Part shown: piece by piece, positions 1 to 46,692 of the stretch | Position numbering within the stretch: position 1 is the first letter of the stretch | Layout of the letters: every line of letters starts with the position of its first letter | Source: Lingula anatina | Taxonomy: Eukaryota; Animalia; Brachiopoda | Direction: 5' to 3' | Length of the DNA: 64,000 nucleotides | Assembly (NCBI GenBank): GCA_051362555.1 | Contig: CM120648.1 | Coordinates: 1,713,721 to 1,777,720 of the forward strand | Position numbers and translations under genes: made by a program | The notes under the pieces: generated by a model | Seen by the model: the letters and a program-made list of their open reading frames with translations, nothing else | The model's database searches: none | Told to the model about the DNA's origin: nothing

Positions 1-3000
1 AGGGGGGGGGGGAAGTTGCTGTAGGAGAGGATATTACTATGATGCAGATTTGAAATTGTGCCATATTTATTATTAGCGAAATATTTATTTGCTAAGTATT
101 GGTGAAGCAAGCATTATTATTAGATTGAATGTTTGGATAAAATGTAGTGCTTTAGGGATCGATTTTTTAAAATTGGGGGTGGGGGAGGGGTGTTGCACAG
201 GGGACATTTCTTATGATAACTTCATGATAAAACATAAGTTAAGGTAAAAATATTTATCATTGCAAGTATATTATTAGCAGAGGTGGGAGTTTTCCTTTTA
301 TTGAAGATGGTTTTCTCCTTTTTATATGGAAAAGATTACTTTGCAAATGTGCTGGATTTTATATCAAATAATGTTAAACTGGAATTATACCTTGGATATT
401 TTCAGATTTTTCTCTTCATTTGAGAACATTTCTTGAATGTTCAGTCCTTAAAATAACTTCAGGTTTCTGCTGTCTAAAATTGTTGATTTGCTTCATTCTT
501 GTTCATTTTAAAAAATGTTTTAGGATAAGGCATAAGGCAGAGTATATCCAATAATGTATCAAACCCAGTGACTTATTTTGTCTAGTCAGTATTGTATTGG
601 AAAGATAAGCAGTCTGTACGGGCACTTACTATACTGAACAAAATTGGGAAAGAGAATTTGTACAAATATAAATGACAAATTTATTTATTTAGTCAAAGGA
701 GAAATTGTTCAAATTTTATGGTTAAGGATCACAGTTACATATTATGGACATGGTATTGGCTTTAATGGCAAACAAGTAGTGAAGGAGAAACCAGGGTCCA
801 AAAAAACATTAAATGGGAGGGGGGGTGGGGGGGGGGGTGATTATTAGCACACAGACTCATGTCTAGACCAAACTGGAGGAAAATGGTTGTAATCTGATTA
901 TTCAATGACTTTGGTAATTTTTGATGTTAAAATAAAAAAGTCTAGCCTATTTGAAAGAGTCAGTACACAGTTTGTTTATACCTGGTAAGCCGTCATTGTA
1001 TATTAAACACATCTGCATAAATATTATAATCCCTTCAATTGAATTAATTTTCATGTATCATGCTTTAACACACATACACACACACACACCCTTATGCATA
1101 TATATAGAAGTGATTTTTTTTTCTGCTTCTCAGTTGCTCATGTAGAATATAGGACTTGCCAAACTAAATTGCTTGATGGTTCCTAGTTTACTCTAGGCTT
1201 GTGATGGGTGCAGATAAATTCTATGCCATATGTACAATGAATTAGGTAGCTATAAAATTTGTAATGAAATATGTTCCTGGATAGTGCATAGCAACCCTAC
1301 CTCTTACTGAAACAGTAGTAAAAGTGTATTAGGCAGGAACTACATTATGCAATCTTTTTTAGCCCAGTATGGGAAAATAATATAAAATCATCAATAGAGA
1401 TTTTGCAGGATTGGGAAGAGAGTGGGGTCAGAAATAATGGCAGACAGAATTTATCCATGGATAATATTTTTATTTTCATTTCTATTAAGTTCTGCCAGAG
1501 GGCAGTCTGTTGCACAACAGTGATTTTACCATGCTTGCAGGATTTTTAGGTGTATTTGGCACTGAAATGTCACTGAAGTAAGTTCAGTCAAAATGGAATC
1601 CTTTTCCTTATAATCTGGGATTCACGGCAGCTTTGTATAGTCATGGCTTGCATTACTGTCATATTATAGCAATAAGGTGTGGTCACATTTAGACAATATT
1701 TTCCACAATTTTATTAAAATACCCTATCACAGTATGTACATAAGGCACATTTTATACCTTACATAAGGGCACACAATGCTTTACTCCAATACAGCTAGCA
1801 TACATTGGGTCAAAGTTGGTGGTTTACATGAAGACTAAAATTGTCAGTTCGGTGAAAGACTCATTATGTTATTCTTTGAATAACTTGAAGCCACTGGCTG
1901 CAATTTTACATGTTAGCGCGAGAGCAGTATTGTGTTCCAACTGCTGAGCAGTTGATCTCCTTAGAATAGTTTAGTTATGCAGTGCTGCCCCCAGTGGTGA
2001 TTTTTTTCAGTCACACCAATCACTGTCAGTCATTGCACAGTGCTGCCTGTAGTGGTAATCATCAAAGTCACAGTCAACAGATTTGCACGTCTTTTGTATT
2101 TTTCATTACTGGGAGGTAGTCTGCATTTGTTGTATTCATATACATTTATATGTATTTAAATCATTATATATGAAGCTATCAGGTGCTACTTTCAGAGCTT
2201 CAGCAGGTGTTGACAACTTAGCTGAATTAAATATAATAGATCTACAGACAGAAGATGAAGACATATATAGAGCAACTTCTTTAATATATTCAAATGTAAG
2301 GGGAACTAATTACAGCGTCAGATTTTCACATCTCTTATAAAACAAATTATTTTCTTTATGAAAGGGGCAACAACAGCTTCAGAGTTAAACATCTTGGAAA
2401 AATATGGATAGCTTTAGCTGTGGTACCCAATCACCTTTAGTTAATAAAATAATTGTGAGAATCTAGTATAAAAAAATCACATTTATTTATTTTGTTCACT
2501 GCTTTTTTTATCAAGCTTTGTTGTCAACTCTGGAAGACTTCTGCTTTCATAATTATGCCATGGTGTTTGTAAGGTGAACTTCATAATAAAGTGTTATTTT
2601 ATCTGAACCCATTTCATGTTTTGTGACTCGGATATGAAAGATTCTGGATATGTACTTATCATTTAGACACTAGATGGAAGGGAGAGGGTCGGGGGGGGAC
2701 ATCTCCAGAATAGAGCCTATTAACCTGGATAAACTCGTTTCATGATGAAGATGATATCACAGACAGAAATATTGGAGGTGATATTAAAAGTAATTTTTTT
2801 TTTTTGGGGGGGGGGGGGGGGAGATGCACCTTTAATAGATGCCAGCTTAATATTGCTGGACACTGAATACTATTGGATCTATTGACTTGACCTGATCAAG
2901 GATTTGTGCTGGAAATGAGAGGATGCATGACATATACCAGCTATTATGCTCATTAATAAACAGAGGGTATTCCGAGAGTGCAGACTTCTGGCATGGAAAA

Positions 3001-3308
3001 ACTCCATGAAAAATTCTTTTCAAAATATATAATATCCTCTAAATCTCATTGGAATTTTGTAAAGGACTCTTTGAGAAAGGTCTATCTTGTCCACTAATAA
3101 CTGAACAGAAAAAGCCACACCAATAAAAATGTTCCCTCTAATTAACAGAGGTAATGAATGAACAACCTCTGTGGGGAGAGGTCAAAGCTTGTTAGTTATA
3201 TAAGAAGTGACCTTACATGCTTATTTGCTTGAACTGTAGCAGCACAAAGTACCTAGAAATTTTGGTGTCCAATCCAACTGCATCAAAATTAAATGTTTAT
3301 TTGTGCTA

Positions 3309-5248
3309 TCAATCATTCTTTTTGTCAGAAATCCACCATTTAACATCTGGCCCATTACTTTCTATAGGTTTGACAATTTCCAAAACAGTGGGGAAATAAA
3401 TAGTATCTCTAATCTTATACTCCCTCCCTGCATCTCTAAAGGCAACCCTTATCCTGTCACGAACTGTCTTAGGGTTGTCCCAATTAGTCACAGGGGTATC
3501 TGAGGGAAGATCGTGCTGAGCAAATGAAATTTCTGGTTGTAAAAGTATATAGGCATGATCAGAGTCAAAAGCATATCTTGAGTGGTTAACTGGGTAGCAG
3601 GGTGCAAACGTCGTCACAAAGAAAGTGATTTTGTTGAACTGGAACACCCATCCTCTTTTGGCGATAAATGACTGCTTCATGCAATGCACGCCAGAAGGAT
3701 CGTAGTCTGATATTGTTGTCAGAACTCTCCGCACAGCTTGTCCAAATGTCTGGAAATGAGGAAGAAAGAATCGATTTAATCACAATAATATTAATTATTA
3801 TTATAGTAATGATGATGTATTGAAATCCTACTTTTCTTTAGAACTGCGTGGTATACTAATTTTTTTAACCATTTACTTGATTTTGTCCGAAGATAAAACA
3901 ATTTTCCTGCATGGCTCAAAAGAACTGGAAAAATACTAATAAAAAAGTAAGATTAAAAAAAACAAAACAAAACAAAACAAACAAAACATCTTATACAGTA
4001 AGCCTTTAGGGTCAACACTGACAGAATTTCCTAAATTCAAAACATCTGGATGTTCTGAGCACCTCCCATTTCATGAATTATGACAAAAAGGATCATTATG
4101 TTATTTTATTTAATTTCTTCTGTACAGAATTCATGAAACATTACCGTACATACCTGGACATTCTTGCCATAGTCTCCTGGAAGTTCATAGACAAAACCAT
4201 CCAGACCAAGAGGTTCACATAAACATGTAAACTTGAGGAAGGTTGGCACACTTTGATATATATTGTGTTCTGAAATAAATAAATAAATAAATAAATAAAT
4301 TAATTAATTGACAAATAAATAAATTAATTAAAGAATTGTGAAGATGACATACTATTGTTGAGTGCTAAATGAAACTAGTAAAATATGAGAAAATGGAAAA
4401 GCACTTTAAAACCTCTGCCAATGCAACTCAATTTTCATTATCATAAATTATTATTAATCATCTAATAAATTAGCATAAATCTAATTATTAGTTAATAAAC
4501 TTTAGTATGATTTAATTTTTCATTCTTTAATTACCTCATCTTAACACATGCCTTTATATGTACATACCTATACTTAAATCATAATTCCATTTCGGAGAAC
4601 CCCATAACCGTGCCTTCTTTGCAAATATGCATTCTGTGTTCATTTTCAGACTCTCAAAATTTGCTAAAGAGTCAACGTCCTCTGCATCATAGGTCACAAG
4701 TTCAGTGACCTTGTGCTCCATAAGGTCAATGACCTTTCTTGGAAGGTCATCAACACTGATTTGTGGCTTGCCTTTCAAAGGATTCCTATTGGATTTTGGT
4801 ATTGCATCTCTTTTATCTTCAGCATCATTTAATGCATAAAGTGAAACTGAAACAAAATAAAATAAAAATAGGTTTTTGGTTTGGTACAGCAAATGAGCTA
4901 ATTCGAAAAGAAATTAAAATAATTCATTTTTACAGAGTATTTTTACCTTATTTCTCTATGTACCCCAAGCCTTTTTAAAACAATCAAAATACATAGTAGA
5001 CCAGCTTTTAGACATGCCCCAAGCTTTAAATTTTCAATTTTGGCAATCATGGTCCTATTAAAATTTTCCATTTTACAGTTATTCAGTAGGTGGCGAATAT
5101 GCTTGTATACACACGTACCTAACAATGCCACAAATGCAGTCAAAGAAGACCAAGATATCACAAGAGAAGTCCCCAGGAACCCTAAGAAGCATGAAATCCT
5201 AATACATAATATAAGATTGGATCTGTACTTATGAAGAGTGTTCCACAT
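3309..5248 (-). CDS. Uncharacterised YqcI/YcgG-like protein with N-terminal hydrophobic anchor (~321 aa, 4 coding exons)
   Basis: Coding exons 5248-5119, 4846-4568, 4269-4154 and 3749-3309 have GT/AG ends and compatible phases (966 nt). ATG context is ttcaccATG, with a probable non-coding exon upstream ending near 5633. Motifs ECIFAKK, GWVFQFNKITFFVTTFAPCY..HSRY, LLQPE.SF and VRDRIR resemble YqcI/YcgG (PF08892) blocks. The gene model is solid; the family call is by eye. Confidence 0.75.
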
Positions 5249-5729
5249 GGTGAATCAGCAGTCTGGCTTTAAACCTGAAAATAAATACGTAATACAGATA
5301 AATGTTAGGTAAACTACTCTGTTTTAAGATTTTAAAACTAATTCTGATTATATTTTTCTCTTATTTTTTTAAAAGTTGCTAGTAATAGTATAAAACTCAG
5401 AGTCAAAAGTCTTTCCCCATTTTTTAAGTCATTTATGGTTTTTGATCTTTACTCTATGCGTCTACATATAGTACATATAAAAATGCAAATAAAAGAACTT
5501 AAGAATGTTTTCCGTGCTGAAATTAAAGAGGTCTTCAGTGATCGATTTACAATTAATGTTCATATAAAAATCCTGCATGACACTCAATACGAATGCTTGC
5601 AACTTACTATAGTACATGTATAGATTGCTCACCTCCTACGCGCACCCAGCAAGGATTACCACTCTCTCCAAAACTTGAATTATTTTGTAAACCTTTGTAA
5701 ACGTTAATATGTACGTACATTATCAACAA

Positions 5730-6600
5730 GTCAAAGCTGACGTCATGCCATGTTAATTTCAGTGGCAGTGTCAAACGTTCCACCGTGGAACTTGTACCCG
5801 TTTTTCTTCTAAATCTGACCAAATCGAAATATTTTCCAGCGATTCTTACAGCTGTACACTACAATTCGATTTTCTAAACACCACCTTATTTAGAGTAGCA
5901 TGTCATGCTTTATCAAGACAAGAAACTTAAGAAAGAAATCTACATTTTATCAGAGAAGTTTGTTTATCCCGGAAGTAGCTCTTCACTATGCGGAGGTATG
6001 AAACTGACAGATCGAAAACAAACCCAAACCCACGTGAAGTAGCTCACAGGTATTGACACGTTTATCACTTCGAGAATTGTCAGCTGATAAGTGATTCTGC
6101 TGTACTGGGTCACGGTATGTACCATTGTAATTATTTATATGGCTTGGCCGGTTAAAGCCAGTCGGGATTTATCAGAAGCGTCCGTTATCTGAAACCTATC
6201 ACAGGTGGCAGTGCCGCGTAACAGGCATTCGGCACGTAGTGACACTGTGCGTTGCGTGATCCGCATAATCGTACAGTAGCTCGTGTGTTTACGTTGTTAC
6301 AGGGCCAGTGTCGAATAAGAGCTCATACAATAAACATGCAGAACAGGCAGATATACATTAAACCAGTGCTCTTGATGGGGCGCAGATCAAATATGTGGAC
6401 GCGTCATCCACTAGTTATACAATGTATAATACCAGGACTACTGCCTGGTAAAATTTAAATTAATAGAAAAAACAAGTGGGATATAAAAATGCCCTACTTT
6501 ACACTGGCCAAACGGACCGACCAAGCAGCAACCGGTTAAGACCAGACCTTACAAGACCTGACATTTCCAAGTACTCAGTACTAAACCCTAATATTTATAT
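5730..6600. promoter_or_regulatory. CpG-enriched, probably bidirectional promoter between the YqcI-like and dehydrogenase genes
   Basis: CpG is locally enriched relative to the flanks, there is a perfect CRE palindrome TGACGTCA at 5738-5745, and the genes point away on both sides. Confidence 0.5.
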
Positions 6601-23000: not shown

Positions 23001-26000
23001 GACAACACTGACATGCATCAAAACCCAATTCTTTAGTAAGGAAAACATTTTTTGTTCCTCTGTTATGTTCATACAATAAGTTCTGATCAAATACCAGTTG
23101 TTTTTTTTTTCTTGCAAAGTCAGAAGGTTGAGGAATCTGGGAAAAATGGTTAAATAATTTACATTTGCATTAGCCAAGATGCTAGATTTGATAAAACCAA
23201 ACATCAGTAATGGTTTGCTTTGATGTAAAACTAGCAGTTCTTCTGAAAATGGTGAAAAGAATAAAACCACATCAATCACGTTAAATTGAACAGACACAGT
23301 CAATATTTCCCATAAAAAAACCCAGCTGGTGCTTTTAAACCATTTAATCACTCATTTTAAATCAGATTAGTACAAGCGCACTCAAGAAAACAGCGGTCTA
23401 TAATTGGGATTCCTATACATTAGTACCGCAATACTAATGATTCATACAGACCTGCTCTGGCCAGCAATTTAACAGATTGGCCCGTCTTTTTATCCACCCG
23501 CCCCTTTTTTCAAGGAACACTTTATATGCACCCTTTGAAGAGATGAAAAAAAAAATGTTTGGAACTCTGAAATCCTATTTAATTTCATACTCTTGGTGAT
23601 TCCTTTTTAATCTGGGAAAAATGTAAGTGAAGCTAGAAGTAGAACACTCCCAATAAATAGGAAGGTCATGCACTGCACTCATACTAACATACTGGGTTCA
23701 GAATGCCCAAAACCTCCATCTTTTTTATCAGAAATGTTCAGTTGCCCTCCCCCTACTAATATCATGCATCAGCTGCCAGTGAACTAATGATAAGACTTTT
23801 AGAAGGCTTACAATTGGGAAACAAGTGGAACAGCATCTTATGCTTATTGCATGCAGTAATATGACACAAGTTTCATAGTCAAATTGTCACAAATATATAT
23901 CCAATCAAGCTTGGAAGGGGTGGATCCAAGTATTTTTTATTATAAGTCAAGCTGCTGGCTCCAGTTAGCAATCCTCCTACATAGATTTACAGTATACGGT
24001 GTTAAATAAGAAACGTCACACTTGTGAATAATAACACTATCTCTTTTCATCAAAACAATAATAATAATAATAACAATCAAGTCCATTAAGTACACATCTA
24101 CAAGAGGATTCTGTATAAAAATTGTTATTATCTGTCATCCTGCTTGGGGGGAATAGTTACAAGCAGTTTGGGATTCCAATTTCCATGTTTCATAAAAAAA
24201 AGCATCTCAATAGATGACAGAAGTTTTTTTCCTCAGACAAGTCACGATACAGATAATACAGTCAGTCTTTCATTTCTGAATTTTTTTAAAGTTCGGTTAC
24301 GAGTCCTCCGGTTTCCCCGATGTCTCTAAATCTTCAACTTGCTCCTGTCCTTGCCCCTGCTCGTCTGCTTGCATGTCCGACGTCCACAGTGTCAAGTTGT
24401 CCCGGAGTAACTGCAGTATGAGCGTGGAATCCTTGTAACTTTCATCGTTCAAGCTGTCCAGCTCTGCTATGGCGTCATCGAAAGCTAATTTGGCTATTTG
24501 ACATGCCTTGTCCGGGGCGCCCAGGATCTCGTAGTAGAACACGGAGAAGTTCAGGGCCAGGCCGAGGCGTATTGGATGCGTAGTCGCCAGGTCAACTTTG
24601 GCGGTTGTGGTGGCAGAATCATAGGCGATCAGACTTTTTTCCGCAGCTTCCTTTCTCTGTGCGCCCGTTGCAAACTCGGCAAGGTATCGATAATAATCAC
24701 CCTTCATTTTGTAATAGAAAACTTTCGATTCTCCGCTGCCCGCTGAAGGGATGAGGTGTTCGTCCAACACGCTTAAAATATCATTACAGATATCTTTTAG
24801 TTCATTTTCCACGGTCAGTCTGTAATCCTTTATCATTGGTAGTTTCTTGGGATCATCAGCTTGAGCTTGCTTTGTTTCTATACTGCTAATAATTCGCCAA
24901 GATGCCCTTCTTGCACCAATTACATTCTTGTAAGCTACAGACAGGAGGTTTCTCTCTTCTATCGTCAGATCAATATTCTGCTGGGCAACTATCTTCATCT
25001 CCTCCACCATTTCATCGTACCTCTCAGCCTGCTCAGCTAGCTTGGCGCGGTAAACACGATCCTCTCTGTCTACCATGTTCGCTAGGTTTATGGAGCCGGA
25101 CGATCAGAAATATTATTAATTGTTTACCGCTTCTGGAAATAAAGAACAAGATGGCCGCGCCCGCCAACAGGTTACCTCGATCAGTAATGGAATGTGTCAC
25201 GTGATGCTGAGCCGCCAATGAGAAATCTGTAAATATTGCACTCCGTTATAGGCATATACATATTTTGTCGCTTATTATGATTAATTAGATATTATGTTAA
25301 GTTTGTACGTGTTTCATTCATAGTTTCAGTAGGTTTGGCCTTGAATTTTAGGGTGCAATAATCCAATCAAACAAACTTGATGTTCAAAAACAGGTTACAC
25401 GTTAGTTACTAGGGAAAGTTGACACTTTTTTCCAAGTATCTCCCTCCCCCCACCGCATGACCCTTTGATTTTCAATATCTTTTCTCAATTAATATGTGTA
25501 GTGACTTTGAGCAACGTCTCAAGTATTCAAATAATTTAGTTTTGCCATTCATTTACTGAATTATCGATGTATTTTACATGAAATTTATGCGATCCAAATA
25601 CTGCGAAAGCCGGCTCATTGCTGGGGTGAAAATTTGCTGCTATCTCATTGGTCAAAGAGCTTGAAGATTAAAAAAAAAATTAGTCAGTGAATTCCCAATT
25701 TAATCTACATCCTTCTGAATAGTAAGGAAATTCATCAAAGTCAACACATAACTTAATTTGGATTAGCATTAAAAATTAGAGAGTTATTTAAAGGGAAGTG
25801 ATCAAATTAATTAGAGCCAATTAATTTGGTGAGGCATAAAAAAAAGAAAGAAGAAGAAAAAAAGTTAATCTAGCTAGATCTTTACCTATAATGTATAAAT
25901 AGGATAGCATTTCGACCCAATTGTTTTGTGAGAAGAGTCCACATTGATTAGTTGAGAAGTAACATCTAACTTAATTTTTTTTGCCTTGAAATGGTGAGCT

Positions 26001-39330: not shown

Positions 39331-42300
39331 GAGAAATGAAAAAGCCAGTGATGCTTCTTTTCAAATTCACATTTGTTCATACTTTAGGTGTTTGCGCCCA
39401 TCCTCCAAGGCCTTTACAACACCATAAAAAGGCTATCGTTTGATGAAGACGACTACAGGCAGCCTATACTGGTGCTTAGACAACTCTGTGATATACAAAC
39501 TTTTGGAAAACAGAAGCCAGTCTGCAGCTTGGTAGGTTTTGATGTACAATTGAAGAAATAATTGTGTATTTCATTTTTTTTTTTTTTTTTTTTTTGTGAC
39601 ATTCATTTATGATGTTGTTTTTGGAAAGCTAAAGGCTTTTTTACCATTCCATAATAAGTAAAAATCTTAGGAATTTGGCCCAAAATATAATGCATGATGC
39701 GAAAAGGGCCTAAGATATAAAGCATGATGTGAAAAGTCCTTTATTGTGCTCACCATTCATCAGAGGTGAAATTGATGAAGTGATGAAACTGCCTTTGTTG
39801 ACAATACTTAATGATTGACAATATTATTGATGTCACTGTAGATCATACAACTTGATAACTGGCTGCCGGCTGGTATGACAGAAGCAGAAGGGATGGAGCT
39901 GCAGAAACTGGCTTTTTTGGGACCTTTCTTTGCCCTGTCAGTATTCGCAGAAGACAATGTAAGGGAAAAAAAGGAAAGGGTAGTGAATATAGATGACATA
40001 GCAGGGGAATAAATAGAATTATACATAAACTCTTTTTCAGCTCAAAATGGTTTTCAATTCTTATGTGCATGGGACTTTTAGTTCACATAAAATTTAAAAA
40101 CTTAAAATCCTAGAGCAATAAAGATGGCTTGGTGAAGCTGGTAACAGAAAATTTATGAGGGATACCAGAGGGAATGCTCTTGTAGTAAAAAAAAAATATG
40201 ATGCTTAAATGTTGGACCACTTACTTGTTTTTAAACATGTGTAGTTGTTTTTTTTTTCATGTTAAATGTAAATGCTGTAAAATATAAACCCACATGTGTG
40301 TGACTTTTTCAGACACAGGTTGTTGAAAAATTGTTTGCTAACAAAGAGATGCCACCTGACAGTATTCGACTTGTTCATCAGAGACTGAGAAGTGAGATGG
40401 ACTTTGCCAGGGTAAGATATCTCTCTCTCTTCCTCCTTCCATCTCTCTCTCTCTCTCTCATTTATTTGCACACACCATCTTGCATTTCATATTAAAAATC
40501 ATTAATTTAATACTTGTCTTTCATATTTGTTTCCTTATAATTTACTTTCAGAATGAGCTGTTTGAAATAGTCCACACATTTTTAAGGAATGTGGACACTA
40601 GAGATTCCTGTTTGAACTTCATCACTGCTGTAATTCAAAGAAATCTCAAACGAGCACAGATCCAGGTATACTGAAACAAATGGTGTTAATAAGAAATTTG
40701 ATAATATTTTGTTACTGGCAGCGCCAAGATTTAATTACTGCTTTGGAAGTAACTGGCTGCCCGTAATAACGCCGTGATCACAAGATACCGTAAATAGATT
40801 TTTAGATTTTTAAAAAATAGATTTTTCATGTGAACGCAGGCTAAGAAGTCAATATGGTGATAATATGCAACTTTTCTTTTCAGGCTGATGAGCGTCTACT
40901 CTGTGGGGAGGGATTAATGCTGAATTTTCTCACTGTGCTACAGAAATTATCCAGACCCATTAAACTAGAGAAGGTGGGTGCTCTGTTCTGTCTTTTGTAA
41001 ATATGTATGGACAATATTTTTAACTGAAAATTTTTGTGTTGTTAGTTAGGAAGAGCATTGCAATTTTGACATGAAAGAGTGTTGTGTAATATAGTCGTGG
41101 TGTTTTTATAGCGAGGTATTTTGAAAGACCAGAAAACAGTTATTCTTTTCTCGGTCACCAAGGTGCAACATTTCCATAACAGTTAACACAGTCCATTAAC
41201 ACTCTCATTTTAGAGATTTTAGTTTTTTGTCTAATTATGTGTCGATTGTCTGATTTAGATGGAAACTGGTGATTTTCAAGTGTAAAAGGAAAATAAAAAT
41301 TTAGAACTCGAAAAGGTTTATTTCTTATAATATAAATATTTTAATTTTCTTATTAGTTTTAGATTTCAGATTATAACTTAAAAATTAAGGGAGAATTGAT
41401 ATTAAATTTTTTTGCTATACAAATAGCTTTAAAGTGTATTTTCTCTATTTTTAAACAGGTAGACCCCTTCTATTTGTTCTCCCCTAACGCACGCGTCAAT
41501 ATTTCGGAAGAGGCAAGATTAAAGTGCACCACTCAGGACTCTACACAGTGGATTGAAGAACTGAGTGAGTTAGAAATTAATAATTCAATGAATATAAATG
41601 GCATAAACACTGACAGAGCCCATTAGCAATGTGCTTGTATAATTAGCATCAAGTTTTCATTTATCAGGAGCTGTAGAGTCTGGTAGAAAAATTTGCTTCA
41701 TGATGTTTTGTCACTATGCCATAAACAGACTACAGAGAAAGAGAGCCCACATGTTCAGTTATTATAAATATAAATTTCAGACAAGGACACGTCGCACATT
41801 TGGCAGGATGCCAAGTTCCCCACGGAATGTTATTTCCTCACTCTTCACTCTCACCATCTTTCCATCCTTCCCATAACGCGCAAATATCAGCGACGCCTAC
41901 GAGCCATGCGGGATCTCACACGCATGATAGAAGAACTGGAAAACCACGAGCCACAATGGAAACATCTACCAACAGTTGCCAGTAGGAATAGAGAATTATT
42001 GAAACGCTGGAAGTCTCAAGAACGGGTAAAAAACATTGTAGAGTTGATATTATTATATGATAATAACTTAGAAATCATTATTTTCTGGCATTTGCTTACA
42101 GACCTCAAATTTATAATTATACATTTAATTACTTTAATAATGTTTTTTCCCCCCATTGTGATGCATATTGTTTTTAGTTTAAAAAATTTTTTGTCACATG
42201 AACCCAGCTCACTTTTAAGAACATGAACTGTAGTTTTCAGGCAGTGCATGCAAAATGTTTTTAAAGGGTAATTAAATCAGTTTTGTTCATAGTAAGTGAG

Positions 42301-43488
42301 GTTTTCCCATAAGATATTTGAATTTTAAACAAAAATAAATGCAGAATAAAAAAACTTTGTATCTCCCACATGCTTTCAGAGACTACAGCGCGGCAAGATG
42401 TGTGCTGATGCCGCAGTTTTCCAAGAATCTTTGTTAGTCGGCACACTACAGTTCTTCGAGACTCTTGTGCAATATCTACTCAGGCTGGTTTGTCCTTCAT
42501 ATCCAAGGTTTGTCTGTGTGTATAGATCTTTCTCTTTCTCTCTCTCTCTCTCTGAATGTGTGTACAAGTGTGTCTGTGTGTTTAAGTGTACCTCTTTCCT
42601 CTGTGAACATTTTTTTCACAAGAACTCTCTTTCTCTCTCTGTTTGACTATGTGTATATGTGTATTTACTTTGTAAATTTATCTAGTTAGAATGATAATAT
42701 CTTTAAAAACATTAAATTGTATTGCTTCTTTAAAAAAAAGAAAATGTTTTACATATTGTTTTCTTTTAATATTTTTAACCATTCTTTGAAATAAAAAAAT
42801 TAATAAAAGTATTTATTTTTAAAAAAATTTAAGGATCTCCCTGCCACTTCCTCAAGAGGTTCCAATGTTGTTTGCAGCACTGCCAGAATACTATGTGGAG
42901 GATTTGGCCGACTTCTTTCTGTTTGTCATACAGTGAGTACAGTTTGCTACTGATGGTCAGATTGGAAAATGCTAGTGTCTTCATTTTCAAGCCTCTGTGT
43001 GTATGTGACCATCTCTTAAATATTAACATGTTTTTCATACTATTTCAGATACACGCCCCACATTTTGGAAACTTCACTGACTCATATAAAAGATCTTGCG
43101 GATTTCTTGATAGTGTTCATATCAAGTTCCCATTATATCAAAAACCCATATTTGGTGGCAAAACTGATCGAGGTCATGTTTGTACTGAACCCAAACGTGC
43201 AGCCGAGAACGGAAAAGACGAGCGACATGGTTCTGAACAACTCCCTGGCTCTGGACAACCTTTCTCCTGCCCTGATGAAGTTTTATACAGGTGAGCGTTT
43301 CCAATAGAATGATCGCTCTGCTTTTAAATTTAGAGAAAAGTATACATATCACTTTTATCAGGATGAACCTTTTACCTCTTATCATTTGTTAATTGTATTT
43401 GTTGTCATTATTATTATTTTTATTATAATTGTTGTTTTACATTTTGGTACGACAGTTTCTCACATTTAACAGTTACTTATTTGTTCTC

Positions 43489-43545
<57 letters not shown>

Positions 43546-44784
43546 TAATAATAAGATATGTGTATATATGTGTATATTTTCAGATGTGGAGTCAACTGGA
43601 GCTAGCAGCGAGTTCTATGATAAGTTTAGCATTCGCTATCACATCAGTATCATCTTTAAGACGTTGTGGGAAAACCCTGCACACAAAGGGAAGCTGATTG
43701 AAGAGGCAAAGTGAGAGCTTTTGCTTATTATTATTATTTATTTATTTATTTTTATGAATGTGCATATTCTGAAGTTTTAAAGAAGCACATTGATAAAGAA
43801 GTTCTATCATGTGAAAAGTGGTAGTCTTGAAGGTACATTTGCATTAGGTTTGTTAAGTTACTAAGGTTACATTTTTTTTTTGAGTAGATGGAATCTCTAA
43901 GTTAACAACATGATTTTTTTAAATTTTATAGATGAAATCCCCGAAGTCATAATATTTATTTTCCTTACAGCTCAGGAAATCAAGAATTTTGTTTGTTTGT
44001 TTGTTTCTTTTTTTTTCCTAAGAGATAAAATCACAGGCAAGACTAACCAAACATTTCAATTTCTAATCATCTCCAGCTCAGGAAAGCAGTTTGTGAGGTT
44101 TGTCAACATGCTGATGAATGACACCACCTTCCTCCTGGACGAGAGTCTGGATACCCTGAAGAGCATCCATGAGGCACAGGAGCTGATGGAGAACAAGGCA
44201 GAATGGGGGAAGTTGTCTAGGGTAAGTGCTGGCAGATACTGGAGGGAAGAGGGGGTGGGGGAGGGGGGCAAGAACAAGAAAGGGTGGGGGAAGTTGTCTA
44301 GGGAAAGTGCTGGCAGGTCCAGGTGTGTGAGGGGGAGTGGAGGGTTTGGGTGCAGGGACAAGAACAGAAGAACAGAAAGAATGGGGAAAATTGTATGAGG
44401 TAAGTGCTGGCATATCCGTGGGAAAGAAGGGGGGAGGGGAGCTAGGATGGTTTTTCAAACTCTATCATTGTTGGGGAAGATATGTTTAAACCATACCATT
44501 ATTGGACATGTATCTTGGACCAGCAGAAAGCAGTGAAAGTTAAATTACTGTTACTTTGTTGGTATTGTGGAGTGTATAAATGATAACCATACCTTTATCT
44601 GTTGTGTATCTAGGAGCAGCAGCAAAGCAAGCAACGCCAGTTAGCCCAGGATGAGAGACAGTGCAGATCCTACCTGACGCTCGGCTCAGAGACAGTGGAG
44701 ATGTTTTACTACCTCACTCGCCAGATACAGATGCCTTTCTTAGTGCCTGTAAGTGTCAGCTTAAACCTCTTGTCCCTTCCTTCA

Positions 44785-44823
<39 letters not shown>

Positions 44824-46692
44824 GTTAATAGTGGGTCAAATTCATGTTTACAGTTACTGTATTCTTTTATACTAAATAGCAGTGGTATACTGTTCAATTT
44901 GGCAGAATAGTTCACTAAAACTTGGTGATTTTTCAGAAACTGATATAAATGGTTGCATTTTTAGCCAAAACAGTACAATGCTTAAGGGTGGGTCACTATC
45001 TTCCATGACTGATAATGATATGATTATTGAAAACTCCATATTTTACCCTAGAAGAATGCTTGTTGCTAAAGATGCCTTACATTGTACAGTTTATTTATAT
45101 TTTTTTAAAGTTTTATTATTTTTATCTTTAGGAATTAGCTGACCGCTTGGCAGCCATGTTGAACTTCAACCTCCAGCAGTTGTGTGGACCAAAGTGTAAA
45201 GAATTGAAGGTGAAGAACCCTGACAAGTATGGCTGGGAACCCAAGAAACTTCTGGACAGGCTGACCAGTATTTATCTCCACCTCAACAACTGTGATGCAT
45301 TTGCTCAGGCTATTGCCAATGATGAGGTATGCACAATTAATGATGAGGTAATACACAACAAATGATGAGGTATTATGCAATAAATAATGAGGTAATGCAC
45401 AACAAATGATGTGGTAATACACAACAAATGATGAGGTAATACACAACAAATGCTGTATGAATATATTATAGACTCGACCAAAGAAGTTGGGAATTGTTGA
45501 AGGTTGTATAAAACAGTAATTACATTATGTATATTGAATTTATGAAAAGGTACTAAACAGGCATTGACGGGTAGAATAAGAAAGAGAGAGTGTGTGTGTT
45601 TGGGGGTGGGGGGGGGGGGGGAGGAAGACAAGACGGCCCCCACAATATTCATGGGCTATCCATCAAATATGGTCATATCTATCTGCATTCCAGAGATCTT
45701 ATCGGAAAGAGCTATTTGATGATGCTGTGGCCAGATTAAAGAAGGCCTGTATCAAGACTCATACAGAAATTGCCCAGTTTCAACAGCTGCAGAGTAAGGT
45801 GGAGAAGCTGTTGGTGGAGAAACACAAAGAGGAGACAGATTTTGGGGATATTCCAGACGATTTTAGAGGTATTTTGCCAAAAAGTTTTTTGTTTGTTTGT
45901 TGTTTTGACAGCTGTTTCCTGAAGGCACTCTGAAAATTAACCCTTCTTTAAAGTATTACTGCATAAGATGCGAAGAAGTATTTTACTGTGTGCATGTTTA
46001 ATTAAGTTACAACCAAAACAGCACATGTATTTTTTCACCATTCTCAACCAATTGAGAAAAAAGAGTTATTTCCACACAATTTAAAGCCATCTATTGAGGA
46101 ATATGCTAACACAGTGCTGCCGTCTATTGTAGATCCGCTGATGGACACCCTGATGACAGACCCTGTGATACTGCCCAGTGGGACTGTCATGGATAGGCCT
46201 ATTATACAGCGCCATCTATTGAACTCCAGCACAGATCCCTTCAACAGGCAGCATTTGACAGAGGAGATGCTGATACCAGGTAAAGAGGGATTTCTTTCGG
46301 AAGTCTATTATATTTGACATCAAACTTACCTGGAAATGAAAATTTCCAAGATGGAATATTATGATGATATTAATAATGAGTATAATGATAATAATAATGA
46401 TAATATGACAAAAGTTGTGCTTATCACAGTTTTCATTATGAAGGGGTGTTCGCTACAAGAAGCAGATGTCGCGTCTCCCACACTTCTGTTTATTAAGCAG
46501 TTACCTACTGTGTCATTCTGACTCGATTTTGAAAAAATGTCCCTGCTCCCATCACTTCACTTTATGATTTATTTTGCAAAAATATATTTTTTTTCTGCTT
46601 TTTCAATTGTTGACATAATGAATCATTTCATTACAGCAACAGATCTGAAAAAGCGCATCGAACAGTGGAAAAGAGAGAAAACAAAGAAGTGA
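32428..46692 (+). CDS. UBE4B: Ubiquitin conjugation factor E4 B (Ufd2 core plus U-box), about 26 coding exons
   Basis: Exon 32428-32451 gives MSELTPDE and 33328 onward gives MRRRRLARL. Later exons give [100 protein letters not shown] and the U-box [31 protein letters not shown]. Stop codon at 46690-46692. Confidence 0.96.
34096..36434. mobile_element. Outer ~0.2-kb MITE interrupted by a nested insertion
   Basis: Inverted ends cattcccatagatttagat..gatcgatcta and tagatcgatctaaaatctgtgggaatg; the TSD is not clear. Confidence 0.55.
34231..36361. mobile_element. 2.1-kb non-autonomous Kolobok-like DNA transposon in UBE4B intron 3
   Basis: 12-bp TIR GG(C/T)CGGTGATAG at both ends, TTAA at 34227-34230 and 36362-36365, CpG-rich interior, and no recognisable transposase ORF. 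Confidence 0.7.
44190..44420 (+). repeat. Three degenerate copies of a UBE4B exon end plus 5' splice site
   Basis: agaaca...tgggg.aa.ttgt.t..gg.aagtgctggca at about 44190, 44270 and 44368. Confidence 0.8.
45318..45455 (+). repeat. 21-22-bp minisatellite (about 6 units) containing a UBE4B splice donor
   Basis: aatgatgag|gta... is repeated; the first unit is the true exon end at 45326. Confidence 0.85.

Follow-up and report, generated by a model that had tools for sequence, protein, structure and literature searches.

A predicted membrane-anchored heme-thiolate protein of the YqcI/YcgG family in the brachiopod Lingula anatina

Introduction

The closest described system is AglA of the argolaphos pathway (PDB 9UB3, 9UB5, 9UBT; PMC12866846), a soluble bacterial protein with an arginine-phosphonate substrate. 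That article describes AglA as having no significant similarity to known heme enzymes, as requiring a reductase, and as being shifted to free arginine by single mutations. In its account, C44 ligates the iron, R166, K196 and R200 contact the heme propionates, F152 and F182 sandwich the substrate, and R179 binds the substrate carbonyl. It depicts the family as ubiquitous in bacteria, archaea and eukaryotes and lists six characterised members, all bacterial and all acting on arginine-type guanidines. ChmN, DcsA, GntA, Mhr24 and AmbT, compared here by description rather than by aligned sequences, belong to the same family, have the conserved N-terminal Cys, and occur in natural-product clusters with arginine-type guanidine substrates. 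In ChmN, the C47A substitution is reported to cause loss of heme (bioRxiv 10.1101/2024.01.24.577118). PMC2922099 put forward an older idea in which the Cys serves to anchor a peptide chain; the results for AglA and ChmN have since replaced it.

Both the family and its chemistry are already known, and databases tag many of the proteins considered here with PF08892. A full-text search, which misses most subscription journals, found no paper on the clade described below, which is marked by Glu248, by anchor or Arf fusions, and by MazG-fused bacterial sisters. A literature match to YqcI (PMC3532174) proved to be an unrelated peptide, 'YQCI'. In many invertebrates and protists, the clade represents a further class of predicted Cys-ligated heme enzyme, one that is distinct from P450, is apparently anchored in a membrane and has kept its active-site residues almost unchanged.

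Results

Gene structure and expression

The gene lies on the minus strand of the window, which is the whole 64-kb stretch of Lingula anatina DNA analysed (Table 1); no second copy was found within the window. Twelve open gene models were enumerated, and the one chosen is colinear with the annotated Lingula proteins P0001 and P0002, from which its 321-aa product differs at 6 and 12 positions, respectively. The product is 98% identical to RefSeq L. anatina LOC106168264, and the last exon, used as a query, retrieved 29 proteins, the top two being L. anatina RefSeq proteins of 321 aa each. The RefSeq loci P0001 and P0002 are 97% identical to each other and may be alleles or a recent duplicate.

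Transcription was evaluated using eight raw-read RNA runs from the same species, with 6-26% of each run covered and a low depth of a few reads per position. The reads covered the exons and left the introns empty except at a dispersed repeat near 4041-4089. In runs X1-X6, the first mates over the exons were nearly all on the plus strand, indicating minus-strand RNA. Two of the three coding introns were confirmed: the joint 3749/4154 was present in four of the eight runs and 4846/5119 in two. The joint 4269/4568 was absent from the joint list of the eight runs; it abuts a skipped repeat, and read depth within that intron was zero. A further joint at 5272(+2)/5631, found in two of the eight runs, means that the gene has five exons, the first of them non-coding. 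The initial annotation had described a clean four-exon gene, which holds for the coding part, given the GT-AG introns, the colinearity with P0001 and P0002, and the RNA. The gene is genuine, spliced and transcribed. The short repeat at 4041-4089, in the last intron, attracts many off-site reads on both strands.

Table 1. Features of the gene in the window
Feature	Position	Strand	Evidence or remark
Coding exons	5248-5119, 4846-4568, 4269-4154, 3749-3309	minus	GT-AG introns; product 321 aa
Non-coding first exon	5633..5990 (upper end approximate)	-	RNA joint 5272(+2)/5631 with CT..AC ends, 2/8 runs; minus-strand depth ~5630-6000
Exon 2	5119..5274	-	ATG at 5248; residues 1-43, most of the predicted two-helix membrane anchor; RNA joint 4846/5119
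Exon 3	4568..4846	-	Residues 44-137, linker and start of the predicted heme domain; colinear with P0001; RNA depth
Exon 4	4154..4269	-	Residues 137-175; RNA joint 3749/4154
Exon 5	3309..3749	-	Residues 176-321 and stop; bears F219, R233, Q246, E248, F251, R272, R276
Cys116 codon	4629..4631	-	Predicted axial heme ligand, equivalent to AglA Cys44; hhalign
Glu248 codon	3531..3533	-	Takes the place of the substrate-binding Arg179 of AglA
Loop 252-271, eukaryote-type insert (T263, W265)	3462..3521	-	Between the equivalents of AglA F182 and K196
3' untranslated region	2630..3308 (lower end approximate)	-	Minus-strand read depth

Family assignment and predicted fold

The motif blocks named in the initial annotation were all found in the product, in the order given: ECIFAKK (115), WVFQF (209), FFVTTFAPCY (218), HSRY (231), LLQPEISF (244) and RDRIR (272). 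Its assignment of the product to the YqcI/YcgG family was upheld by profile and fold comparisons. The profile match to PF08892 scores just below the gathering cut-off of 27 bits: P0001 as a whole aligned at 25.1 bits (E 1.8e-5), with residues 116-253 on profile positions 12-151, and P0002 scored 26.4 bits. Chance is excluded because the last exon alone (E 6.6e-4), P0001 and all 27 of the homologues scanned match this profile, the homologues at E<=0.012; eight of the 27 exceed the cut-off. The bacterial sister proteins score 44-48 bits. Using hhalign, the clade matched classical members of the family with a probability of 93.9% (E 1.6e-7) and, in a second run, 97.7% (E 7e-12, 205 columns).

The AlphaFold model, built from 21 sequences, had a pLDDT of 78.7. 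In Foldseek, its top five matches were all AglA (probability 1.00, E 1.7e-3 to 8.8e-3), and the next match had an E value of 0.52. VIA-align superposed the model on AglA 9UB3 with Z 16.1 and an rmsd of 3.3 A over 207 residues, at 13% identity; the best match other than AglA (Z 6.1) involved the N-terminal helices only. In the ESM Atlas, the top match scored 0.91 and the ten best matches all agreed on the family. PDB sequence searches with the eukaryotic profile and with the Trinickia domain did not find AglA, which was recovered solely through fold searches and through a classical Bacillota homologue (E 7e-34 to AglA). This failure of sequence searches with clade members makes the clade a distant branch of the family. 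The NCBIfam GntA model NF041366 gave no match at E 0.001 for P0001, P0254 and P0256, while the classical controls L019 and L011 matched. Judging from the predicted structure, the product is very probably a heme-thiolate protein of the AglA fold.

The C-terminal CPF motif is absent from the window protein. This motif is part of the family name in source annotations and has no known catalytic requirement. CP occurs within the last 30 aa of 10 of 264 clade proteins versus 22 of 29 classical ones, the other seven classical members also being without it.

The N-terminus is hydrophobic, with Kyte-Doolittle 19-residue windows above 1.6 across residues 11-49, and AlphaFold places helices there at 2-27 and 33-47; the two helices indicate a hairpin rather than a single helix. 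Hydropathy and the modelled helices make an N-terminal membrane anchor likely, as the initial annotation had proposed, and 32 of 37 named animal proteins have the same hydrophobic N-terminus.

Residues of the predicted active site

Residues were mapped by chaining two alignments, one of a classical Bacillota homologue with AglA and one of the clade with the classical profile. This places AglA C44, F152, R166, Q177, R179, F182, K196 and R200 at C116, F219, R233, Q246, E248, F251, R272 and R276 of the window protein. Thus, the AglA heme set Cys44/Arg166/Lys196/Arg200 corresponds to C116/R233/R272/R276 and Phe152/Gln177/Phe182 to F219/Q246/F251. Conservation was counted over the 264 proteins that covered >=85% of the domain profile, out of 323 that matched it. 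Cys116 is kept in all 259 homologues that reach the position, and R233 (264), F219 (264), Q246 (263), R276 (261), F251 (260) and R/K272 (256) are nearly invariant. The Cys of ECIF, claimed earlier to be the FPC-type heme ligand, indeed aligns to the FPC Cys and to AglA C44, and heme binding through Cys116 is likely on these alignments. The F-P preceding the FPC Cys is not retained, the window protein having T-E-C-I-F.

Three departures from classical members are consistent in the clade: Glu248, a longer loop after F251 in the eukaryote-type proteins, and the missing C-terminal CP motif. Glu occupies position 248 in 218 of 264 clade domains, with Y, M and L also occurring; among the 29 classical proteins, 8 carry R, 21 carry H and none has Glu. 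The loop between the F182 and K196 equivalents is 13 residues in AglA and 20 in the window protein. Across the clade, loop 252-271 measures 18-26 aa in nearly all anchor-type (125 of 130) and Arf-type (21 of 22) proteins, versus 9-16 aa in 42 of 43 MazG fusions.

Distribution and domain architectures

The profile retrieved 938 representatives at E<=0.001. Among animals, named matches come from sponges (two), hemichordates (three), nemerteans (two), annelids (two), a flatworm, a rotifer and many molluscs; among protists, they come from Diphylleia, Clastostelium, Ploeotia, Lacrimia, Pigoraptor, Rhodelphis, Symbiodinium and Epithemia. The earlier framing of the gene as an animal novelty does not fit this spread over sponges, hemichordates, spiralians and several protist lineages. 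Vertebrate, arthropod, nematode, cnidarian and echinoderm names did not appear among the matches listed (the best 120 of 167 in one word-limited search, in which most rows carry no species name).

Of the 264 domains, 43 are fused to a MazG-like domain and 22 were binned as Arf-GTPase fusions. The bins (anchor, Arf, MazG, short) are heuristic: bacterial P0322, P0324 and P0325 fall in the anchor bin, and P0067 may be wrongly placed in the Arf bin. In some protist members, the Arf GTPase replaces the anchor, as confirmed by Pfam for P0017, P0021 and P0023. This joining of a predicted heme enzyme to a GTPase of a trafficking family recurs in about 20 other proteins, with Lacrimia and Epithemia among the named sources.

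Origin of the eukaryotic genes

Trees were built using FastTree on 293 rows and IQ-TREE on 60 rows, many of them labelled 'eukaryote' by inference. In the IQ-TREE phylogeny, a single branch (SH-aLRT 97), placed among bacterial MazG-type rows, unites the 40 eukaryote-type rows, and FastTree concurs. Lingula lies inside a 12-row lophotrochozoan group (96; IQ-TREE). A phase-0 intron before codon 176 is identical in four animal-like loci, each of which is closest to Lingula or to molluscs among its named matches; four other loci tested differ or gave no result.

An independent acquisition of the gene by animals from bacteria, separate from that of protists, would accommodate the position of Macrostomum and Adineta, which stray outside the main animal group in IQ-TREE, and a tree constrained to join animals with six bacterial rows is not rejected by the AU test (p 0.143, lnL 33.9 below the quick tree). 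We regard this origin as very improbable in view of the single eukaryote-type branch, of the tree with all animals constrained together, which is 35 lnL above the free quick search (p 0.90), and of the loop insert and W265, which are common to animals and protists, W265 occurring in none of 43 MazG fusions. Grouping the non-animal eukaryotes as one clade gave an AU p of 0.72, which does not bear on transfer. Two constrained searches outscore the free quick tree, so the branching order inside the eukaryote clade is provisional.

The shared loop insert favours a single eukaryotic origin. From the sequences, it appears likely that eukaryotes acquired the gene early from a bacterial lineage with the MazG fusion and that animals then inherited it vertically. 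Of the two histories offered in the initial annotation, ancestral inheritance within animals is the better reading, given the one eukaryote-type branch, the animal monophyly test and the shared intron. One protein at the base of the eukaryote-type clade, P0118, is a MazG-like fusion with a poly-Asn tract, possibly from a eukaryote that retained the fusion. A viral vehicle is unsupported: the eukaryotic profile found no viral contigs, and the fusion profile found one prophage-type locus (L092).

Bacterial relatives and their gene neighbourhoods

The bacterial relatives stand at 27-39% identity. A GTDB scan with the animal alignment returned six loci, four with an N-terminal MazG-like domain, one cut by a contig end and one stand-alone. 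The nearest prokaryotic relatives are uncharacterised YpjD/MazG-YqcI fusions (Anoxybacillus, Trinickia, Lederbergia, Amycolatopsis). The motifs C-x-F-A, FAP.Y, QPE.SF and, at the C-terminus, WW are common to them and the window protein; where the latter has its anchor, the fusions carry a tandem YpjD-like domain at the N-terminus, in some cases together with HAD or HD domains, and they are without the loop insert. The MazG-like domain, a tandem YpjD-like unit, has YpjD as its nearest match (2gta, E 2.6e-12, with a fold match too), and its acidic motif is retained, E34, E35, E38, E56 and D59 being invariant in six of six. YpjD is described as a putative pyrophosphohydrolase in PMC5372718.

Neighbourhoods were scored in 17 bacterial locus groups, from which insert-bearing loci or loci of unclear origin were left out (L051, L053, L054, L059, L070, L073, L077, L082-L091). 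The families scored were HD/YfbR nucleotidase, HAD phosphatase, cytidine or dCTP deaminase-like, nucleoside phosphorylase-like, PfkB kinase and uridine kinase. Eleven of the 17 groups have a MazG fusion or, no farther than 1.5 kb away, a gene for a nucleotide/nucleoside enzyme: HD/YfbR in Anoxybacillus, L006, L042 (fused), L044 and L061; HAD in L005 (fused) and L045; cytidine deaminase in L005; phosphorylase-like genes in L045 and L048; PfkB plus a dCTP-deaminase-like gene in L072/L076/L080; uridine kinase in L092; and the fusion alone in L058. The remaining six (L002, L050, L052, L064, L066 and L093, two of them cut at the N-terminus) have neither fusion nor such neighbours.

The control set consisted of 29 classical loci with 105 surrounding ORFs, drawn from 301 and 401 genomes. 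None of the 29 has a neighbour from the scored families. Their neighbours are LysE, amino-acid permease, DDAH and DUF1989 genes: LysE occurs at 5 of the loci and DUF1989 at 12, one locus has a DDAH-like gene, and five have other nucleotide housekeeping genes; LysE flanks five of the seven classical Bacillota loci. The difference, 11/17 vs 0/29, is strong and gives a Fisher p of 9e-7, or 0.003 when the five other nucleotide housekeeping neighbours are counted, and both values are optimistic in that the family list was drawn up post hoc, the metagenome query was the MazG-fusion alignment, and groups L044 and L061 are probably related. No amino-acid exporter or arginine-pathway gene was found beside the bacterial loci of the clade, and no reductase gene was noted there. 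In 8 of 17 groups, an adjacent gene encodes a SAM methyltransferase, which fits any small-molecule pathway.

Judged by gene content, loci of the L042, L005 and L045 type look like an undescribed nucleoside-modifying pathway. In these loci (L042:5764-8426, L005:3478-5699, L045:2787-8814), fusions of the types MazG-YqcI-HD and HAD-MazG-YqcI occur near genes for methyltransferase, deaminase, phosphorylase-like and PfkB proteins. A different arrangement occurs at L044:5758-8545 and at L061, where the YqcI-type gene is followed by a gene for a 400-aa HTH protein and then by an HD nucleotidase. L044, with GmrSD, PLD and type III restriction genes at its flanks, is a candidate defence locus, the only one of the 17 groups in such a context. 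PADLOC (2023 library) gave no match for the YqcI-domain proteins scanned.

Proposed function and alternatives

The reading that we tentatively prefer is a membrane-anchored heme-thiolate N-oxygenase acting on an amidine or guanidine nitrogen, more likely that of a nucleobase, nucleoside or nucleotide than that of free arginine. N-oxygenase chemistry as such is probable; a nucleobase-type substrate, suggested by the bacterial sister proteins, is a more hesitant proposal. The hydrophobic hairpin of residues 11-49 would sit in an internal membrane, with the catalytic domain (~94-315) on one face, probably the cytosolic face of the ER. Cys116 would ligate the iron, Arg233, Arg272 and Arg276 would hold the heme propionates, and Phe219, Phe251 and Gln246 would line the distal pocket as in AglA. 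An outside reductase, which AglA and ChmN also need, would supply the electrons for oxygen activation. For an ER protein, cytochrome P450 reductase and cytochrome b5 are the obvious candidate donors. Microsomal cytochromes P450 have the same combination of N-terminal anchor, Cys-ligated heme and outside reductase that is predicted here, on an unrelated fold. The pocket would be reshaped by the loop insert and by Glu248, which stands in for the carbonyl-gripping Arg of AglA and may suit a ribose diol or an amine. Together, Glu248 and the fusions to MazG narrow the candidate substrates to a short list open to testing. Against the substrate part, the clue comes from bacterial proteins at 27-39% identity, and in the eukaryotic members MazG is gone and a loop insert has appeared beside the pocket, so that the substrate may have shifted; moreover, six of the 17 bacterial groups have no nucleotide-type neighbours, Glu248 varies within the clade, and all six characterised members of the family act on arginine-type guanidines.

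The retained guanidine-facing residues F219, F251 and Q246, together with the propionate contacts, would suit a heme enzyme that N-hydroxylates a cationic guanidine or amine of non-nucleotide type (agmatine, a methylarginine or a phosphagen precursor, for example), with Glu248 binding the amine. Every characterised member acts on guanidines, an Arg-to-Glu exchange suits a carboxylate-free substrate, and methyltransferases adjoin 8 of the 17 bacterial groups. We nonetheless hold this alternative to be rather unlikely, as it leaves the MazG, HD and HAD fusions and the kinase and deaminase neighbours unexplained, and exporter or arginine-pathway genes are missing beside clade loci, compared with LysE at five of seven classical Bacillota loci.

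A heme sensor, a heme chaperone or an oxidase with other chemistry, e.g., oxidative N-demethylation of modified nucleosides, would account for the 22 of 264 Arf-GTPase fusions, which are odd for a biosynthetic enzyme, for the bacterial loci at which no reductase gene was noted, and for the mostly missing C-terminal CP motif (10/264 vs 22/29). The near invariance of F219, Q246 and F251 is what catalysis on a defined substrate would be expected to produce, and such a role is improbable.

The version in the initial annotation, N-hydroxy-L-arginine made from free arginine without NOS and feeding NO release or arginase inhibition, has only a slim chance, given that the AglA Arg179 position is Glu in 218 of 264 clade domains and 0 of 29 classical ones and that the bacterial sister contexts are nucleotide-type and the classical ones are not, even though single mutations enable AglA on free arginine, the catalytic core of the window protein is intact, and ChmN is reported to hydroxylate free arginine (bioRxiv 10.1101/2024.01.24.577118). 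A free arginine substrate is accordingly disfavoured. The bacterial contexts are those detailed above. Molluscs and other invertebrates already possess NOS.

Extending the preferred N-oxygenase reading, the clade might make N-hydroxylated nucleosides or nucleotides on purpose, N4-hydroxycytidine-like (the class of the active form of molnupiravir) or 6-hydroxylaminopurine-like. The bacterial MazG, HD and HAD domains would process or detoxify the product, and the anchored animal and protist form would be a viperin-like source of mutagenic antivirals and an endogenous supply of N-hydroxylated bases reduced by mARC/YcbX-type enzymes. This extension is a long shot. Were the product an N-hydroxylated base or nucleoside, it would bear on the physiological substrate of mARC, which a review describes as unknown, adding that doubt has been cast on whether N-hydroxylated bases occur naturally (PMC10637980). 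Viperin is described as likewise having a prokaryotic origin, a linkage to nucleotide enzymes and membrane tails gained in eukaryotes; it differs in its radical-SAM chemistry and proven antiviral products (bioRxiv 10.1101/2023.09.13.557418), whereas the YqcI-domain proteins scanned here have no PADLOC match and L044 is the sole group among restriction genes.

Other genes in the window

A plus-strand gene lies head-to-head with the one described here: window 5990-6114 is joined to 10279 (+), and reads change strand near 6000. Loose read ends at 6049 and 6114 map to 10279. A Pfam search with 70 aa of this gene gave no match; its frame has a G-x-G-x-x-G stretch reminiscent of an NAD-dependent oxidoreductase. 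Window 24297-25103 (-) encodes a complete 14-3-3 domain in a single uninterrupted frame (E 4e-102), intronless and possibly a retrocopy, and window 41774-45933 (+) contains exons of a Ufd2/UBE4-type ubiquitin ligase.
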